Sequence record: OK148440
Length of the DNA stretch: 64,000 nucleotides
Reading direction: 5' to 3' (one strand)
DNA from: Escherichia phage MLP3
Position numbers and translations under genes: made by a program. The notes under the pieces are model-generated. The model saw nothing but the letters and a program-made list of their open reading frames with translations, ran no database searches and had not been told where the DNA came from. Positions 366 to 50,140 of the stretch are shown piece after piece; position 1 is the stretch's first letter, and the number at the start of each line of letters is the position of its first letter.

Positions 366-781
366 ATTAATATTTCCTTATATAAATTTAAGATTGTTGC
401 TCTCTTTGAGCGGTTTGTATACTATATACATTACACTTATACAGATAAGGTTCTATTATACTATAACCTTTTTGGTAGTAGATAATGACAAGTAGTAATG
501 TATATATGGTATAGCTAGTAAAGCTATTGCAGGCTTGTATATTGGGCAATTCATAGAATCCCTTGCAAGTACCGAAGGGCAGGAGCCACCTGCGAGATAA
601 AAATAGAGAATTAAGGAAATCCTTGATTTAGGTTGTAGGGACTCCTAGGGACTTTGATTCTCTATTTAAAAGAATATTAATTACTTACTACCTAAATAAT
701 TAACTAACTTACTTAAACCAAACTCAAGAATAATAGATAAAAAGATTATTCCTAAGAAAGCTAAAAAGTAAAGGATATAAG

Positions 782-6964: not shown

Positions 6965-7008
6965 AACTCCTTAATATATCAGTGTACACTAAGGAGTATA
7001 CATTATGT

Positions 7009-26665: not shown

Positions 26666-27028
26666 TTACTCTGCTACCAAAAGGCTCAGAGATTTGCGAA
26701 TGTAGTCAATACTACGGAAGTTTCGATAATTCTCTTGGAAGCGCATCTTTTCAAACTCTGCTTCCTGAAGCTCTACCTCTGCTGCTTTATATCCTGATAA
26801 AGCTAAACTTACCACATCCTGAGGTAAGGTATTACGACGGCGAATAAGATATTTATTCGCTTTTAGTTTACCTTGTGCACGAGCCATTTTGGCCTTTGCC
26901 GCCTTGATACCATGAGAAATCCAAAGCAGTTGCTGTTTCAGATCTTCCTCATCCATACCACCTAAATCATTTGCTACTTTATGCAGCGTAGACAGGTTCA
27001 CATGGCCTTTAATGGGGCGTAGGTTCAT
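26666..27028 (-). CDS. hypothetical protein
   Basis: 120-aa ORF. Confidence 0.5.
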   Translation of the reverse strand: MNLRPIKGHVNLSTLHKVANDLGGMDEEDLKQQLLWISHGIKAAKAKMARAQGKLKANKYLIRRRNTLPQDVVSLALSGYKAAEVELQEAEFEKMRFQENYRNFRSIDYIRKSLSLLVAE

Positions 27029-27192
27029 AACTTCTCCTGTTTGTCACATTGATTGGTTAGCCAGTTGTAAGACCCACTGTTGTTCTTGCTTAACTCGCAA
27101 GATGCAAAAGAGTACATCCTGACAAACCCCACAGTGGCTAAGCAAATAAAGATTGCTGCCAATAAGAATTTAGCTTTCAACTTATTATCCAT
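27025..27192 (-). CDS. small membrane protein (55 aa)
   Basis: ATG at 27192 with GAAGAGG SD; hydrophobic LLAAIFICLATVGFV; stop overlaps next ATG (ATGA); below ORF-track cutoff. Confidence 0.35.
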   Translation of the reverse strand: MDNKLKAKFLLAAIFICLATVGFVRMYSFASCELSKNNSGSYNWLTNQCDKQEKL

Positions 27193-27212: not shown

Positions 27213-27237
27213 AAAAAAGGACTCTCCTAAGAGAGCC
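27213..27237 (-). terminator. intrinsic terminator-like hairpin downstream of conserved element R1
   Basis: Minus strand GGCTCTC-TTAG-GAGAGTCC followed by TTTTTT. Confidence 0.45.
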
Positions 27238-27300
27238 AAGCTTTAAGGCCAATTAAATAGATATCACCCAATATCTGTGGATAACCTGCTCTTAAAATAT

Positions 27301-27436
27301 TCTATCCGACGGATGTTCGAGGATTATTCCTCTCCCTAGCATCGGCCCCATACGGGAAAGATTAAATTAAGTTTAGGTTAGTTGAGCCAGAATAGCTCAC
27401 ATAGCCCTCTGATACTCACAAGGGCTATAGATGTTA
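27301..27436 (-). promoter_or_regulatory. conserved ~130-nt element R1 with 8-bp hairpin (copy 1 of 2)
   Basis: About 70 percent identical to 32598..32722; shared blocks TCTATC, TCTCCCTAGC, CTCACATAGCCCTCTGATA-N-CACAAG-GCTATA; hairpin 27401-27408/27421-27428. Confidence 0.5.
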
Positions 27437-27682
27437 CTCTGTGGCTCCGTCGAATCGGAGGATTGCTGCTGGAACAGGGTATACTTCCAGATCTTCATCC
27501 AGTCGGTATAGATGCCCTGTACTTAAATTTACAGCTGTTACTGGCTTAGAGTGGCCTCCAGCCTGTATGGAAGGAACTCTGATAAAGAACTCTTCTGGAT
27601 ATTCAACAGAGTGGAACACACTTCCTGAATAAAGATCTTTTATTTTAGAAGTTTGTTTAGGAGTTTTATCAGCAATTTTCAT
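27434..27682 (-). CDS. small protein, paralog family B (L-x-DL-x-PG-x-VF core)
   Basis: MKI...KDLYSGSVFHSVEYPEEFF; family also at 28803, 29073, 32721, 32946. Confidence 0.5.
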   Translation of the reverse strand: MKIADKTPKQTSKIKDLYSGSVFHSVEYPEEFFIRVPSIQAGGHSKPVTAVNLSTGHLYRLDEDLEVYPVPAAILRFDGATE

Positions 27683-27943: not shown

Positions 27944-28357
27944 TTAAACAACGAATTGGAACGCTTCGTATCCAAACTTATATAAGAAATCGTGTTTGAA
28001 CTTCGTTACACGACCACGGTCACGGAAAGATTTCAGACGGTTACTGAACCCAGCCATCGGCTCAGGGTCAATAGGACTACGAATCTTCATAGCTACAGAG
28101 TGCAGCTTGAAGCGCTTACCAGTGCTACATGCCATCATCACATACTCCATACGAGTAGTCCAGATGTTAAGCACCATACTTGTTTTCTCCGCTGACCAAC
28201 CAGTCTTGCGGGCGATTTCCTTATGGATGTTAAGCTCCAAAGGAAGTGGGAATTGCTTGTTGAATGAAGCCGGATAGAGTTTGACCAGAAGATCAATGTT
28301 TTCTTTATACGTTAAGTAAGCTAATTTCTTGCTTACGTTGGGGAATTTCCCAGACAT
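27944..28357 (-). CDS. ProQ/FinO-domain RNA-binding protein (tentative)
   Basis: N-terminal region LVKLYPASF...PLPLELNIHKEIARKTGWSAEKTSMVLNIWTTRMEY resembles the ProQ/FinO domain. Confidence 0.45.
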   Translation of the reverse strand: MSGKFPNVSKKLAYLTYKENIDLLVKLYPASFNKQFPLPLELNIHKEIARKTGWSAEKTSMVLNIWTTRMEYVMMACSTGKRFKLHSVAMKIRSPIDPEPMAGFSNRLKSFRDRGRVTKFKHDFLYKFGYEAFQFVV

Positions 28358-28390
28358 TTTTGAAGCTCCAAAACAGCGCCGAAAAGAGAG

Positions 28391-28432
28391 GCGTCATAGT
28401 AGCTAAAAGGAGGAGAGAAGAGGGCTTATTTA
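28391..28432 (-). promoter_or_regulatory. bipartite conserved motif GCGTCATAGTAG-N13-AGAAGAGGGCTTAYTTA (copy A)
   Basis: Second copy at 34508..34550; both preceded by a short hairpin; located just upstream (minus sense) of the ProQ-like gene. Confidence 0.4.
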
Positions 28433-28555: not shown

Positions 28556-28813
28556 TCAGTAGAAGGTGTGTGTAGAGTCGTCGTTCATAGATAACCAAAC
28601 GAAGAAGACAATCACACAGAAAGCAATAACACCGAGAATTGCAAGGATTATAGTGTTAGCTAATGTGATATCTAACACGCTTTGCAGATACATAAAGAAC
28701 TGTACGACACCACATACCATCAGCACAACCCCAACGACAATGAGGAGCCAATATGTGCAGAGAAGGACTGCATCTAATAGTGATACATACTTTGGATGAT
28801 CTTTATGTCTCAC
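28556..28813 (-). CDS. membrane protein
   Basis: Several hydrophobic helices (LLCTYWLLIVVGVVLMVCGVV; ILAILGVIAFCVIVFFVWL). Confidence 0.45.
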   Translation of the reverse strand: MRHKDHPKYVSLLDAVLLCTYWLLIVVGVVLMVCGVVQFFMYLQSVLDITLANTIILAILGVIAFCVIVFFVWLSMNDDSTHTFY

Positions 28814-29069
28814 TGATCTTTTCCACTAAATCCAGAGTTGCTGATTCAAATACAACACCAACTACCATATTAGGTGCCATATTACGAACGTATCCGCTCT
28901 GCATAGACACGGCCCGAGAGTATTCAGAACCGTTAGAACTTTTGTTTACCTTCATGTAAAGGGTTTGCTCTTTATCTTCTTTCAGAGTAAAGAAAGAGCC
29001 GGGAAGAAGCCTCTGAACAGTCAGAGGGATATCTGCAACATGAGTCTTATTGATAGTAAGAACTGTCAT
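28803..29069 (-). CDS. small protein, paralog family B (divergent)
   Basis: LLPGSFFTLKEDKEQTLYMKV matches family core. Confidence 0.45.
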   Translation of the reverse strand: MTVLTINKTHVADIPLTVQRLLPGSFFTLKEDKEQTLYMKVNKSSNGSEYSRAVSMQSGYVRNMAPNMVVGVVFESATLDLVEKISET

Positions 29070-29072
29070 TGC

Positions 29073-29327
29073 TTATTCCTTAATAGTTGCTTCAGCTTTA
29101 ATAGGAATAACAGCAACATCTTTACGAGGTGCTGTCGCTCGACCTGTGTTAAGGCAGGCTACAAGTCTATGCTCGTCCGCACCCTTGATGCAGAGTCGAG
29201 TTGAGAACTCAGTAGACAGCAAGATGTACAAATCATCATCTTCACTGTTAGGGTACATGAAGCAATCCCCAAGTCGTAAAGCACTGAGAGGTATTGCACT
29301 CTTACCTGCTGGTTTATTAACTTTCAT
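29073..29327 (-). CDS. small protein, paralog family B
   Basis: LSALRLGDCFMYPNSEDDDLYILL matches family core. Confidence 0.5.
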   Translation of the reverse strand: MKVNKPAGKSAIPLSALRLGDCFMYPNSEDDDLYILLSTEFSTRLCIKGADEHRLVACLNTGRATAPRKDVAVIPIKAEATIKE

Positions 29328-30551: not shown

Positions 30552-30627
30552 TGTGGTGCACCCTACAGGACTCGAACCTGTAACCAACGACTTAGAAGGT
30601 CGCTGCTCTGTCCGTTGAGCTAAGGGT
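30552..30627 (-). tRNA. tRNA-Arg (anticodon UCU)
   Basis: 76-nt cloverleaf folded by hand: acceptor GCACCCT/AGGGTGC, D-stem GCTC/GAGC, anticodon stem GCGAC/GTCGT with loop CTTCTAA, T-arm ACAGG-TTCGAGT-CCTGT, encoded CCA. Confidence 0.9.
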
Positions 30628-30638
30628 GCTGAATTTGT

Positions 30639-32597: not shown

Positions 32598-32722
32598 TCT
32601 ATCACCGGATGTTTGAGACAAGTCTCTCCCTAGCGGTGAGCCATATGGCGTTGAGATTATAGTTAATTGAGGAACACCCTCACATAGCCCTCTGATAAAC
32701 ACAAGAGCTATAAGTCGATGTT
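32598..32722 (-). promoter_or_regulatory. conserved ~130-nt element R2 with hairpin (copy 2 of 2)
   Basis: Homolog of 27301..27436; hairpin 32684-32691/32704-32711; the single stem mismatch on the plus strand becomes a G-U pair in minus-sense RNA. Confidence 0.5.
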
Positions 32723-32945
32723 ACTTGTTGGTTAGTCGTGCGTTAGGTACAGGTCTGACTACAGTCGATTTACACTCAGAATCACGCTTACCTGTATAAA
32801 GGTTAACAAAATAACTTTTGTTTTCACCATAACACGCAGTACGCATGTAGTATTGAGTTTCATTGTAGTTAAACTGGAAGACTTCACCCGGATTTAGGTC
32901 TCCGAGAGTTACAACCTCTGGCGTACTATCAATGTCAATCTTCAT
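32721..32945 (-). CDS. small protein, paralog family B
   Basis: MKI...LGDLNPGEVFQFNYNETQYYM. Confidence 0.5.
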   Translation of the reverse strand: MKIDIDSTPEVVTLGDLNPGEVFQFNYNETQYYMRTACYGENKSYFVNLYTGKRDSECKSTVVRPVPNARLTNK

Positions 32946-33176
32946 TTAACCACCAATATTAGTCACTTGAACATCAAATACAGGGATAACTTCATGATGT
33001 TCCTGTAACTGGAATAGTGTTCCCTGACGAAGACCAACCACACGATGCATATCATTCAGGCAGGTGTCTGTCTTTAGATAGAGGTGTTCAGAGTTAGTTG
33101 GTAGACGGAATACATCACCCGGACGTAGATCGCTGAGTTTTTTAGTAACAACTAAAGATGGGAGATTAATTTTCAT
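32946..33176 (-). CDS. small protein, paralog family B
   Basis: MKI...LSDLRPGDVFRLPTNSEHLYL. Confidence 0.5.
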   Translation of the reverse strand: MKINLPSLVVTKKLSDLRPGDVFRLPTNSEHLYLKTDTCLNDMHRVVGLRQGTLFQLQEHHEVIPVFDVQVTNIGG

Positions 33177-34278: not shown

Positions 34279-34307
34279 TAAAAAAGCCCCATCCGAAGAC
34301 GGGGCGA
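34279..34307 (-). terminator. rho-independent terminator
   Basis: Minus strand GCCCCGTC-TTCG-GATGGGGC (8-bp stem, one G-U) followed by TTTTTT. Confidence 0.6.
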
Positions 34308-34360
34308 CCTGAAAGAGTGAACATGACCTCACTCATTTAAGAATCCTCGTAAAGACTCTT

Positions 34361-34386
34361 AAAAAAGCGGCCTCGTTAAAGGCCCG
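34361..34386 (-). terminator. rho-independent terminator
   Basis: Minus strand GGCCT-loop-AGGCC followed by TTTTTT. Confidence 0.5.
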
Positions 34387-34465
34387 GTCAAATGACCATC
34401 CAATAGGGATTGAACCATGCCAATGATTCACAAAGGGAGTTCCCTTTAGGTATCACTAGCTACGC

Positions 34466-34486
34466 AAAAAGCCGCACAAAGGCGGC
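34466..34486 (-). terminator. rho-independent terminator
   Basis: Minus strand GCCGC-CTTTGT-GCGGC followed by TTTTT. Confidence 0.6.
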
Positions 34487-34507
34487 AGACAAAGACGCTC
34501 AAGAAGA

Positions 34508-34550
34508 GCGTCATAGTAGTTGACCACTGGTACAGAAGAGGGCTTACTTA
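34508..34550 (-). promoter_or_regulatory. bipartite conserved motif GCGTCATAGTAG-N14-AGAAGAGGGCTTAYTTA (copy B)
   Basis: Matches 28391..28432; preceded by hairpin GACGCTC-AAGAA-GAGCGTC (34494-34512). Confidence 0.4.
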
Positions 34551-35797: not shown

Positions 35798-35816
35798 TCA
35801 TGTGTTTTATTGTTGG

Positions 35817-36728
35817 TTATGCTGCCAGTTGACGCGCCGCCATAATCTCGGCAGCTTTGCGTAACACTTCCTCTTCTTCCTGCGCAGCTTTCTCATTAGC
35901 TTTGACAGTTGAAGCGTTTGAGATACGACCGCGAAGGTTAGACAATTTTTCAGTCATTTCATTGATCACCTTTTCCATTTCATCGGCGTACGAGTCCAGA
36001 GATTCAAGCTCTTTAGTTGAGGCATTAATCAGGTAGTCATCGCTGATAGAAACAGTTGAAGCGGTTACTTTCTTAAGGAGTGAATCGAAAGTTTTCTTAA
36101 CTTTGCCTACTTCTTCACTCAATGCGATAGTATTGTCAGAAGATGCGCCGTTGCGTTCATCTGCCAGTAGTGCCGCTTCAATACGGATTGCAGCCAGACG
36201 GTCAACCAGTGCATAAATATCCTGATTAAAGTTTTCGTTAACCTTCTGGTTGATCTGGTTTGCTACCGGAACATTGTCGTTGCAACCTTTGTAGAATGCT
36301 GGGTTATCAACCTGCACGTCTTCACCTTTAGCAAAGCGTTCAAAGGAATTAGACCAGCGGGCGCGGTTTTGTTCCATTTTGGCCTTAACTTGTTCCGGTT
36401 TAGCATCCTCTTTCGCTTTCGCTTCACCTTCCAGATTAATCCATTTCTTTTTACCGTTCGCCCCGTCGCTGTTGTACTTGATCGGGGTTAAGAAAGAGAT
36501 GGCAACCGCAATCACGTCTAAGTCACGATAACGCTCAGTTAACAAGAAATCAACCGCCGCCTGCAATACATCCAGTTTCTTACCGTTGGTGCGGAAGTGC
36601 TGCAAATGGCCTAACAGGAAGTTAGAAACATCTTGTTTGATTGCCGCGTTGTTGCTACGAATGTTGTTAGCCAGTGCATTAAAGCCGGATTCGTTAACCA
36701 GATTAAAAACTTTAGCCATGATATTCAC
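35817..36728 (-). CDS. hypothetical protein (303 aa)
   Basis: Long ORF; first gene after the 1.9-kb non-coding gap. Confidence 0.55.
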   Translation of the reverse strand: MNIMAKVFNLVNESGFNALANNIRSNNAAIKQDVSNFLLGHLQHFRTNGKKLDVLQAAVDFLLTERYRDLDVIAVAISFLTPIKYNSDGANGKKKWINLEGEAKAKEDAKPEQVKAKMEQNRARWSNSFERFAKGEDVQVDNPAFYKGCNDNVPVANQINQKVNENFNQDIYALVDRLAAIRIEAALLADERNGASSDNTIALSEEVGKVKKTFDSLLKKVTASTVSISDDYLINASTKELESLDSYADEMEKVINEMTEKLSNLRGRISNASTVKANEKAAQEEEEVLRKAAEIMAARQLAA

Positions 36729-37541
36729 CTTTCAATTGTAAGGGCACTATGCCCCGCTCTCTATGAGCTTTTTAAGTCACTATTGACTTATCAATAATCA
36801 CTCAATATCAAGTAATTATTGATAAGCGAGGCGGTCTTATCAGGAGTTAACCTTGCCGCCTCCTTATCCGTGATGTTTCATCTGGTATCTTTAATTAGTC
36901 GCTATAAATAAAGCCGACCTGATAGCGATGATCAATCATCACAATAAGGCAGTGCGTCCGACTCTATTTAATTACTTTATCGTAACCGTCGGCAATATCG
37001 TCTACTTTGCTTTCGCTCCCGCCTATCCTTTTGTACTAACTCTCAATCGCTAACCATCGCCCACTACGGGAGGTTATTGCGAAAGAGTCATTAGCCGTCT
37101 AATACATTGACGTTTTATATCTTTCAGCAGGTTTACTACATAAACTGATTATGTACGCCATCAATAGTGGCCTCAAATCATTCACATCGTAAACGTTCAC
37201 ACTAAACCTTATTGTTAAATAGCAATTTGCCACTTTTTAACCATTCACCGCCGCCCCCAATTGGGCGTTAATTCGTCGGATTTGCCTACCCTGATAAACT
37301 TCTTTCACTGTAGCACCTTGTTAGCGATGGCCGCCGCTACCCTTTAACCGTGGGCGATTAGTTTAGGCCGTTGCGTGTACTCAATGAATCCGTTTTATCA
37401 GTGGTGACGTTTCCAGTTAAGGGATTGTAAAAACTGTTTACCCTGATAATTTAGGGAGTCTTACGCCGTTTTATCTGGTATGTTTTCCGATGGTTATTAT
37501 CATCCAACATATTCAACCGATATAGGAGAATGTTTAAATTG

Positions 37542-37552
37542 TTAAAGAGCGG
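37542..37552 (+). promoter_or_regulatory. TTAAAGAGCGG motif copy 1
   Basis: Exact 11-mer repeated at 37772 and 37908, variant at 38311; followed by TATCAGTGTG. Confidence 0.3.
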
Positions 37553-37771
37553 TAAATCTATCAGTGTGCTTTCTCACACTATGCAACTGTTAGCCGTTGT
37601 TACGCTTTTCTTAAGCGGTGAATTGCTTAAGTGTGCTCATTATGAATCATGCTGTTTTAGCTGTCAACCGCTTTTTAATCTTTTTCGTCGTTCCCTTTAT
37701 TGGGAGGATATATCAATCAGCTATATTTGATTGAAGATTAAGCGGTAAGGCTTAACTCGCGATTCATATTT

Positions 37772-37782
37772 TTAAAGAGCGG
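37772..37782 (+). promoter_or_regulatory. TTAAAGAGCGG motif copy 2
   Basis: Exact 11-mer; followed by TATCAGAGTG. Confidence 0.3.
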
Positions 37783-37907
37783 TGTTTCTTACTGCTTGGT
37801 GAACATTCTATCAGAGTGTTTCACCTTGTCAACTCTTTTTATCATCTTCTTTTATTCTATTCCCTTATCTCGCTTGAATCTATGCGAAAGGGCAAGATGA
37901 TAAATTG

Positions 37908-37918
37908 TTAAAGAGCGG
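37908..37918 (+). promoter_or_regulatory. TTAAAGAGCGG motif copy 3
   Basis: Exact 11-mer preceded by AAATTG as in copy 1; followed by TATCATAGTG. Confidence 0.3.
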
Positions 37919-38052
37919 GGCACTAAGTGCCGGATGTTTCAAGTCATCGCTGACCGTGTGAACATCTTATCATAGTGATTCGATGTGTCAACAACTATTT
38001 TTCGATTAATGCATCTTGATAAACTAGCGACCATTAAGGCCGCTAACCTACC

Positions 38053-38253
38053 TCAGTTCATACGTTTAAAGGTTAAATCTTTATCCGTACTTACCAGCGA
38101 AAGCACCGCAATAGCTTTGCCTTTATCGGCATCGGCTACCATCTCTTTAGCTTGCTGTAGCGTACTACCGACTATTCTCATAATCATGTTAGTAACGTTA
38201 ATGCTAGTGCAAGTGATTTGCGTGTCTTTGCTTGAGAAGGTGTAAATATTCAT
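38053..38253 (-). CDS. small hypothetical protein (66 aa)
   Basis: ATG at 38253 with TGAGGA SD 8 nt upstream (ORF-track ORF 38053..38292 trimmed). Confidence 0.35.
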   Translation of the reverse strand: MNIYTFSSKDTQITCTSINVTNMIMRIVGSTLQQAKEMVADADKGKAIAVLSLVSTDKDLTFKRMN

Positions 38254-38310
38254 TGATAAATCCTCATTATGGCATGGTTGGGAGTTTATCAAGATACACT
38301 AATCAGATTC

Positions 38311-38320
38311 TTAAAGAGCA
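38311..38320 (+). promoter_or_regulatory. TTAAAGAGCA variant motif copy 4
   Basis: Variant of the 11-mer. Confidence 0.2.
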
Positions 38321-38568
38321 AGGCTAAACATCTAGCCTATCAGGAGGTAATTTACTGCGTCACGTCCTGACAAGATTCAATATACACTATCCTAAAACCG
38401 TTGCAAGCCTTTTTCTAAAATAATTTCACTTTCTTTTAGGCATAGAGGAACACGCGCACGAATAGCATCAAGGGAGGAAGAAAACAAGCCTTATAATCGA
38501 AAATAAGGCATACAGGAGGCGTTCTAACGAGCTAAACAGGGGCAAGATGTGCAATCACCTTAGAAATG

Positions 38569-38591
38569 AAAAAAGCGCCTCAAAAGGGCGC
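38569..38591 (-). terminator. rho-independent terminator
   Basis: Minus strand GCGCC-CTTTTGA-GGCGC followed by TTTTTT, immediately after stop of 38603..38974. Confidence 0.6.
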
Positions 38592-38602
38592 TTAGGGAAG
38601 TT

Positions 38603-40405: not shown

Positions 40406-40789
40406 TTCCTTATCCTTTCGGTTGATGTGAATTAAAAACTACGATTGCAACTATATATTAAAGGAAAAACCTGTCAACCACTTATTTTCAAACTATTTCA
40501 TAACTCACTGAATATAAAAGGAATTTAATTTACTAAACTTTCTTGTTCAGAGATACAGCTTACCAAATAGATGTTATTTTATAACACTTACAGAACGGGT
40601 AGCAGACCAACGGGATAGATAGATGGGTAAGACGTGCCGCATAGGTTAGCCAATGGGTAAGAAGCCTAACGAGGAAGGGGAAACGGGTAGGATATAATGT
40701 AAGTTAGTTACAGTTAACAGGTCAGACCATGCGGTAATAAATTACCAGTCAATTCGCTACTATCGTAGCTCATATCAAATTCCTACTCA

Positions 40790-50076: not shown

Positions 50077-50140
50077 AAGACCTATACAAGCTAGTGTGTA
50101 ATGTATATTCTTTGTCTACATATAACAAGGAGGACAACCT

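Follow-up and report, generated by a model that had tools for sequence, protein, structure and literature searches.

What fills the gap between two small early genes of Escherichia phage MLP3, and whether it is more than spacer, is the question raised by the locus that we call R1. The window, that is, the whole 64,000-nucleotide (nt) stretch of DNA that was analyzed (sequence record OK148440), belongs to a phiEco32-like podophage (Gordonclarkvirinae) whose closest relatives, IME267 and vB_EcoP-101114UKE3, show 98% identity to it, and R1 occupies positions 27441-27210 of the minus strand, on which its flanking genes also lie, within the early-gene block. An earlier note, made from the letters of the window alone, had proposed a structured cis-acting RNA at this site rather than spacer; that it is a structured RNA and not spacer was borne out by covariation in all helices and by conservation. 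Comparative evidence shows R1 to be a conserved structured RNA of the sense strand that includes an irregular helix, ordered and nearly invariant. We are highly confident that it is one of two paralogous copies (the second, R2, at ~32729-32467 on the same strand) of an uncatalogued structured RNA family, and just as confident that this family resides, in sense orientation, between small early-operon genes of phiEco32-like, 7-11-like and Citrovirus-like phages.

Fold, copies and distribution of the RNA

RNAalifold, applied to 29 distinct core sequences that MAFFT had aligned on sequence alone, returned four helices (H1, H2, P3a and P3b) in which 99.7% of the alignment cells are paired, compared with 33-47% when the partners are slid by 1-3 columns; 8 of the 22 pairs change on both sides, and no shuffle reaches the observed covariation score. 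A 47-pair structure of full-length R1, evaluated on a 16-sequence alignment, is 96.6% paired (38-48% when slid) with nine pairs changing on both sides. Adding two divergent members, the 48.7-kb metagenome-assembled contig L043 and Klebsiella phage Asterion, brought the count of two-sided changes to 13 of the 22 core pairs at 99.5% pairing, with the alignment of these two sequences fitted to a model in whose building neither had been used. The minimum free energy fold of the window copy of R1 coincides with the comparative fold (z = -2.8; R2, z = -2.9). The covariation analysis across related phages that the earlier note had suggested thus yielded compensatory changes in every helix; taken with the conservation of the RNA in three phage families, these leave no room for neutral drift. 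Many positions pair as C-G in some sequences and as U-G in others, an exchange that on the opposite strand would produce A-C mismatches, and the loop of the downstream terminator reads UUCG in phiEco32 and GUAA in SE131; the U-G pairs and the UNCG and GNRA tetraloops indicate that the fold is that of the sense-strand RNA.

The element was described in the earlier note as ~130 nt long and structured; structured it is, but the unit is larger, comprising a 168-nt folded domain (27441-27274) that extends to ~232 nt with the terminator. It opens with a long hairpin, P1 (27441-27388), made up of an outer P1a and an inner P1b (H1) and recovered both in the minimum free energy fold and by RNAalifold on 22 R1 copies. 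P1a, with the strands AGUAAC.. and ..GUUAUUCUG, contains the stop codon TAA (27436-27434) of the upstream 82-aa gene, a member of the paralogous family B, confirming that the element starts at that stop codon. Pair counts give 98.8% pairing for P1, and the R2 equivalent is AACAYC/GRUGUU. H1 is, as noted earlier, an 8-bp hairpin with a 12-nt loop (ATAGCCCT/AGGGCTAT, 27428-27401); the loop is replaced in other phages by cUUCGg, UACG or UCCG tetraloops, and six of nine pairs are changed on both sides once the divergent members are included. A three-way junction is closed by P2, a long-range interrupted rod of three segments and ~20 bp, whose G-free, pyrimidine-rich 5' strand (UAACCU...CUUAA..., 27380-27358) pairs with a 3' strand (..UUAAG..AGGUUA, 27303-27281) that overlaps a DnaA-box-like 9-mer, TTATCCACA, at 27284-27276. 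P2a (UAACCU/AGGUUA) is invariant; P2b has three pairs changed on both sides, reading UCUUAA/UUAAGA in E. coli phages and UCUUUU/AAAAGA in those of Salmonella, and the innermost segment is a weaker one.

Inside the junction lie the mini-hairpin H2 (CCC-GUAU-GGG, 27356-27347), whose stem occurs as CCC/GGG, GCC/GGC, GGC/GCC or UGC/GCA, and the irregular helix P3 (27345-27306), composed of P3a (CCGAUG/CGUCGG) and P3b (GAGGA/UCCUC) with two 3x3 internal loops between them, CUA/AUC and GGA/GAA, separated by a single G-C pair. The strands that form these loops, CUAGGGA (27339-27333) and GAACAUC (27318-27312), are nearly invariant. At the last position of the second loop (5'-GG[A/C]/[G/A]AA-3') we found A.G (14), C.A (10) and A.A (3), never C.G, and this covariation is seen independently in R2, in L043 and in the R1 copies of both E. 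coli and Salmonella phages. It is the pattern expected of isosteric sheared-type pairs, and the variation among sequences indicates an ordered, non-canonical P3 internal loop. A further small hairpin with a G-rich UGGGUG loop, AGAUAU-UGGG-UGAUAUCU (27276-27259), is missing in SE131 and is probably a weakened counterpart of the UAGGGGUA hairpins found in R2 and Asterion.

The relation between R1 and R2 rests on several measures. Segments 27301-27436 and 32598-32722 share 100 matches over the shorter, 125-nt segment, whereas shuffles reach 61 +/- 2.4% with a maximum of 67%, and the ordered shared blocks pointed out in the earlier note are visible in the pairwise alignment. The 19-mer TATCAGAGGGCTATGTGAG occurs exactly at R1 and R2 and, even when three mismatches were allowed, at no other site and in none of 100 shuffles; a search of the window with a covariance model gave two copies and no more (R1, 134 bits; R2, 109 bits), the next match scoring 12 bits. 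The R2 core (32729-32580) has its stop codon (32723-32721) in P1, H1 at 32711-32684, H2 and P3; its P2 is short (AAUUAAC/GUUAAUU). Specific to R2 are hairpins A (32568-32545, 10 bp) and B (32535-32508, 12 bp), each presenting a GGGG tetraloop within UAGGGGUA on a covarying stem, and R2 contains UAGGG four times in all (P about 3e-6). Asterion carries one UAGGGGUA hairpin ~65 nt past its RNA core. The genes 5' of R1 (82 aa) and R2 (74 aa) are themselves paralogs, so that gene and RNA were probably duplicated together, and their protein identity of 33%, set against an exact 19-mer, implies that the non-coding part is better conserved than the genes.

A blastn search located R1 in 102 phage records, 98 of which hold at least 80% of it, while the surrounding 1.8 kb aligned across in just 21 of 97 records. 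Between window-type and phiEco32-type phages R1 retains ~86% DNA identity versus ~41% protein identity for the adjoining 405-aa protein, a conservation far in excess of that of the flanking genes. On the 5' side, homology sets in abruptly at AGTRAC, preceded by the ends of several unrelated genes; such breakpoints at its edge suggest an additional role of the element as a recombination joint. Collections of virus, metagenome and genome sequences, scanned for patterns and then with nhmmer, yielded 22 unique R1-type and 16 R2-type copies. Both copies are present in every phiEco32-like genome (~100 phages), and in phiEco32 itself R1 separates gp91 from gp90 and R2 separates gp113 from gp112. The Salmonella 7-11-like phages (Grimontviridae) carry a single copy, which lies in a 250-nt gap without annotation and is followed by another gene than in the phiEco32-like phages, and the SE131 genome holds no extra copy. 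In L043, which is CVT22-like and matches the model at 68.6 bits, H1 (UUAAGCG/CGCUUAA) and P3a (AUAGCG/CGCUAU) are wholly different in sequence and fully paired, and the P3 loop strands GCUAGGGCGAG and CUCAAACAUCCG are kept; its proteins resemble those of Citrobacter phage CVT22 (Zobellviridae, Citrovirus). Asterion matches at 43.6 bits and CVT22 has a weak copy (26.3 bits) in the gp79/gp78 gap; the model search found none in Erwinia phage Pecta. The Asterion copy lies under an annotated coding sequence (PV891806.1, CDS0013, 52 aa, 2654-2812) that overlaps the covarying RNA core and is probably a miscalled gene.

A search anchored on the downstream 405-aa protein re-found only Escherichia and Shigella phages. 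Citrovirus-like phages and phiEco32 share a phage sigma factor and a cluster of amidoligase, COOH-NH2 ligase and GlmS-like genes, a gene set that points to common ancestry of an early/middle module across families, and the RNA lies 0.1-3 kb upstream of the amidoligase/GlmS-like cluster in every lineage. CVT22, Pecta and Asterion (L050-L052; ~48 kb) also have a glutamine amidotransferase and a RimK-like gene in common with phiEco32.

The family matches no known member of the structured RNA elements of phage early transcripts. Scanning the whole window with Rfam 15 at gathering thresholds returned tRNA-Arg only; this tRNA-Arg(TCT) gene lies at 30554-30629 on the minus strand, between R2 and R1. 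In E-value scans R2 had no match at E<=1, and the best match to R1 was STnc100 (21 bits against a cutoff of 47; E 0.015), which we rejected since it is far below threshold and spans the terminator only. Public phage records carry no annotation in the R1 gap except the terminator, annotated in SU7 and 4E8, and the literature searched, whose coverage did not extend to the primary phiEco32 transcription papers, contained no description of this RNA. There was no similarity to it in 5,426 E. coli genomes, and mimicry of a host RNA and prophage copies were rejected on that ground.

The terminator and the early transcription unit

The intrinsic terminator predicted in the earlier note was confirmed within 27247-27210 of the minus strand. 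Its hairpin, GGCTCTC-TTAG-GAGAGTC (27237-27220), contains G+C and runs directly into a tract of six T (27218-27213), as expected of an intrinsic terminator, and 18 nt past this tract are the Shine-Dalgarno (SD) sequence and start codon (27203-27190; ATG at 27192) of the next gene, a 55-aa open reading frame (ORF) at 27025-27192, leaving no room for a promoter. About 165 nt lie between the H1 hairpin and the terminator. The hairpin has a free energy of -7 to -11 kcal/mol across lineages (about -10 for the window copy); it is kept, with covarying pairs, in the E. coli as well as the Salmonella lineages, where the closing pair is C-G, G-C or U-G and a G-U changes to A-U; the flanks, UUAAAG on the A-rich 5' side and U6AA, are able to pair. 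Given the modest hairpin energy and the SD that follows directly, read-through is required. Ligands of the ProQ type are determined by a hairpin, at least four U and an A-rich 5' side (PMC7367173), and the UUAAAG-stem-UUUUUU of R1 would, by its sequence, qualify as a ProQ/FinO ligand.

Of the cis-acting roles put forward in the earlier note, that of an attenuator fared badly. No alternative pairing with the 5' arm of the terminator is conserved across lineages; the best partner of this arm differs from one lineage to the next and is often no better than in shuffles, and the spacer between domain and terminator is variable and partly deleted in SE131. The proposal is weakened further by a downstream gene that differs between phage families and by the fact that the terminator accompanies R1 only. 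The suggested identity of layout at the two loci, element, terminator and then operon, holds only loosely: a terminator-like hairpin does follow R2 (32491-32467, minus strand), but its U-tract is weak, it is not conserved in phiEco32-type phages, and in phiEco32 itself no terminator stands between R2 and the gene that follows.

Neither a sigma-70 nor a phage-sigma promoter is conserved within the element or ahead of it, and the phage-sigma motif TAATGTATA is absent from it. A promoter-like CTGACT-18-TATATT (9/12) of phiEco32 was rejected, as it falls within the 5' strand of P2 and does not recur in other lineages. With no promoter of its own evident, R1 is presumably made within a polycistronic early transcript. 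The early-gene block of phiEco32-like phages is transcribed by host sigma-70 RNA polymerase (PMC4281155). In the window, near-consensus sigma-70 promoters are located at 37991-37639 and at 40477, and promoter matches downstream of these are weak only. Terminator-like hairpins are about twice as frequent as expected from dinucleotide shuffles (26 versus 13.5, 10 versus 4.3 and 10 versus 5.8 in window positions 8000-40500); most are on the coding strand, many of them just 5' of the SD of the next gene, and strong internal promoters are lacking. The combination of weak promoters and many coding-strand terminator-like hairpins below 37639 implies that downstream genes are reached by read-through. 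The R1 terminator is thus one of many intercistronic terminators, which are probably leaky.

Further features of this region were recorded. On the minus strand at ~36700-38600, a stretch of ~1.9 kb without annotated genes in relatives contains three tandem near-consensus sigma-70 promoters (37991-37964, 37832-37805 and 37667-37639) and terminator-like hairpins at 38593-38573 and 38509-38488, and would be a long untranslated early leader. Four coding-strand terminator-like hairpins fall within 230 nt at 34286-34512 (minus strand), including GCCCCGTCTTCGGATGGGGC followed by T6; they lie under two tiny ORFs annotated in phage Bas87 and could be either tandem terminators or a further structured RNA. 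Immediately 5' of the start of a ProQ-like gene, at 28365-28425 (minus strand), a short G+C-rich hairpin (CGCC-9 nt-GGCG) runs into UGUUUU, a further case of a terminator followed by an SD. Exact copies of the gp36 phage-sigma promoter motif occur at 425-433 (minus), 496-504 (plus), 6997-7005 (minus) and 50099-50107 (plus); with one mismatch allowed, its count in the window is not above chance.

Possible functions of R1 and its candidate partners

Tentatively, we favor a reading in which R1 joins a protein-recognition domain to a leaky terminator of the ProQ/FinO type and so gives rise to a stable 3'-end RNA. P3 and the recurring UAGGG loops of the accessory hairpins would form a recognition surface for a conserved host or phage protein. 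At R1 this domain would be coupled to the modest terminator, where a share of the polymerases would stop; in the stopped transcripts the upstream message would end in a compact, exonuclease-resistant 3' domain, and a ~230-nt RNA of the 3'-untranslated-region type with a ProQ/FinO-style 3' end might persist. For such a 3' end this phage encodes a FinO-domain protein, and in the other carriers host ProQ would serve. The remaining polymerases would read through into the next, promoterless genes and allow their expression, so that the ribonucleoprotein platform and the leaky terminator would jointly determine how stable the upstream mRNA is and at what dosage the downstream operon is expressed.

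A ProQ/FinO-like partner, suggested in the earlier note, has a counterpart in the window, a 137-aa ProQ/FinO-domain gene at 27944-28357 on the minus strand (two ORFs upstream of R1; Pfam 27.3 bits against a cutoff of 27), but such a gene is absent from most of the phages that carry the RNA. By tblastn the FinO-domain protein is found in ~21 window-type phages and in 7-11-like phages, there 6 kb from the RNA; homologues also occur in Erwinia and Aeromonas phages and were not detected in phiEco32-type phages. Immediately upstream of R1 is the 82-aa family-B gene (27434-27682, minus strand, stop codon inside P1a), whose product is predicted to be an SH3-like barrel. The window encodes five such paralogs of ~75-88 aa on the minus strand (27437-27682, 32724-32945, 32949-33176, 28806-29069 and 29076-29327), with the motif DLxxGxVF ... 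LxTG and a predicted fold that is a generic SH3/KOW-like five-stranded barrel (pLDDT, the predicted local distance difference test score, 82; best PDB matches E >= 0.05). A family-B protein precedes R1, R2, R2 of phiEco32 and the Salmonella copy, but not R1 of phiEco32 or the Citrovirus-like copies.

Several of these observations weigh against the reading that we favor. A conserved terminator exists at R1 only, with none after the RNA in phiEco32-type R2, Asterion or L043, and a terminator-defined 3' end therefore cannot be the general mode of the family; because terminator-like intercistronic hairpins are common throughout the early region, the adjacency of R1 and its terminator could be partly incidental. 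The FinO-domain protein is missing from ~75 phiEco32-type phages and also from the Citrovirus-like phages that carry the RNA, and its gene was rejected as a syntenic partner since the same position in phiEco32 and in Salmonella phages is occupied by an unrelated membrane protein. The family-B protein is likewise not supported as an obligate partner, having five paralogs, not always being adjacent and adopting a generic SH3-like barrel. Neither protein can be called the partner.

The main rival to a recognition domain with a leaky terminator is a processive antitermination or anti-pausing RNA acting in cis, like HK022 put or the Bacillus EAR element, which we consider unlikely, if the best placed of the alternatives to a known type. 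The nascent RNA would remain on the host RNA polymerase and render it resistant to later intrinsic terminators, beginning with that of R1 itself, which stands directly downstream and must be read through. The setting suits such a role, as the RNA lies on the sense strand of long host-polymerase operons with few strong promoters and an excess of coding-strand terminator-like hairpins, two copies stand in series in the longest operons, and the identity of the flanking genes does not matter; loops that are invariant across phages of different enterobacterial hosts fit a conserved host machine, and all carriers rely on host RNA polymerase and a phage sigma factor. Against this, strong terminators at 35799 and at 34512-34286 lie upstream of R2, beyond the help of the element, the Citrovirus-like copies (Asterion, L043) lack notable terminators in their vicinity, none of the Rfam antitermination families matches and the recurring UAGGG loops are left unexplained. 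A nut site of the lambda type, in which boxA (CGCUCUUA-like) precedes a short boxB hairpin capped by a GNRA-like pentaloop, was rejected because no boxA-like block is conserved, the conserved single strand being ACUCAACUAACCUA. A processing and stabilization module like the RNase III sites of T7 is a still less probable candidate. A host endoribonuclease would cut P1 and/or the P2 rod, uncoupling the up- and downstream cistrons and leaving protective hairpins at the new ends, for which the position exactly between cistrons from the stop codon onward, a P1 of ~18-20 bp with an internal loop and very stable UNCG caps in several lineages, and the interrupted ~20-bp rod would be well suited; yet a mere cleavage signal has no need of a three-way junction with two invariant internal loops, of isosteric non-canonical covariation or of repeated UAGGG loops, and only one or two sites occur per genome against many intercistronic gaps.

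Other explanations are more distant. It is improbable that R1 is a riboswitch or attenuator in which the junction binds a metabolite, for example one linked to the amidoligase or GlmS-like products, and controls the R1 terminator. Conserved junction and loop nucleotides flanked by covarying helices would be in keeping with this, as would the location of phiEco32-like R1 and its terminator directly before gp90-gp83 (COOH-NH2 ligase, amidoligase, GlmS-like aminotransferase) and the proximity of the RNA to this cluster in every lineage. But there is no conserved, mutually exclusive anti-terminator pairing and the spacer is variable, the gene directly downstream is not constant, with a cell-wall hydrolase following in Salmonella phages and unrelated small genes following R2; a terminator is lacking in most copies, and in none is there overlap with an SD. 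Selection on DNA instead of RNA, through a DnaA site at 27284-27276 acting as origin, roadblock or titration site, is very improbable. TTATCCACA is a perfect match to the high-affinity DnaA consensus box, and the overlapping GGTTATCCACA is invariant in 22 R1 copies including those of Salmonella phages, with varying flanks; five of its 11 invariant bases (GGUUA), however, form P2a with the invariant UAACC, and CAGA pairs with UCUG in E. coli phages, so that the conservation is mostly explained by P2 pairing. The 9-mer is moreover absent from R2 and the Citrovirus-like copies, the window has two exact boxes in 64 kb (0.65 expected; 12 of 100 shuffles reach two), and the U-G wobble pairs and tetraloops are marks of selection acting on the RNA. 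A DnaA-box cluster or origin was rejected, with a single box in R1 and the other one 26 kb away. Hardly credible, finally, is the absence of any function of its own, whether R1 were a relic of gene-plus-spacer duplication or an unrecognized small ORF. The upstream paralogs, a 19-codon ORF readable in R1 and the 52-aa coding sequence called over the Asterion core could be cited in its favor, but conservation of the non-coding part far exceeds that of the duplicated genes, and the reading frame is not kept: the 19-codon ORF loses its frame in Salmonella phages and stops early in R2, the P3b loop has a 2-nt indel, stops fall at different places per lineage and Pfam lends no support for coding.

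Beyond these known types, it is possible, though doubtful, that R1 represents a new class of phage RNA acting on a conserved host machine. It might be an antiterminator that reprograms RNA polymerase, of a new processive type used by sigma-encoding podophages that have no polymerase of their own, or alternatively a decoy for host takeover, an early RNA that titrates a host RNA-binding protein through the invariant P3 and the repeated UAGGG loops. The family may also be a new riboswitch or self-cleaving ribozyme class.

Relation to known systems and significance

R1 resembles the ligands of ProQ and FinO (malM-3', cspE-3' and RaiZ; FinP with FinO of F plasmids) in having at least four U and an A-rich 5' flank (PMC7367173), in lying at the 3' side of a coding unit and in having a FinO-domain gene in the same gene block. 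Unlike the known ProQ ligands, it has a conserved 168-nt three-way-junction domain upstream of the terminator; most copies in the family (R2, Citrovirus-like) have no terminator and most carriers no FinO-domain gene. With HK022 put and Bacillus EAR the element shares a sense-strand structured RNA in long host-polymerase operons, upstream of intrinsic terminators at R1 and more loosely at R2, in two copies per phiEco32-like genome and requiring no particular neighbor gene; it differs in its negative Rfam scans and in a larger and different architecture, and the RNA of this family lies kilobases from the early promoters with terminators upstream too. The RNase III sites of T7 are likewise conserved intercistronic hairpins with internal loops right after early-gene stop codons in host-polymerase transcripts, but are single irregular hairpins at many junctions, whereas here a multi-helix junction with invariant loops occurs at one or two. 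The promoter-early stem-loop cassettes (PeSLs) of T4-type phages, short promoter-plus-hairpin units present in many copies, are similar as conserved intergenic stem-loop sequences between variable small early genes; the present element is promoterless, ~170-270 nt long and elaborately structured with covariation, and it occurs in one or two copies.

Phages of the phiEco32 type serve as a model for the redirection of host RNA polymerase by a phage that has none of its own, through the sigma factor gp36 and the inhibitor gp79, and they are used in phage-therapy collections. Their early region has so far been described only as dozens of small hypothetical genes. The RNA family is a ready candidate for Rfam and corrects at least one miscalled gene, and the two internal loops of P3 are a defined mutational target. 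That the RNA is better conserved than any neighboring protein points to an unrecognized RNA-level step in early infection, for which transcript stability, read-through control and host-factor capture are the candidates.

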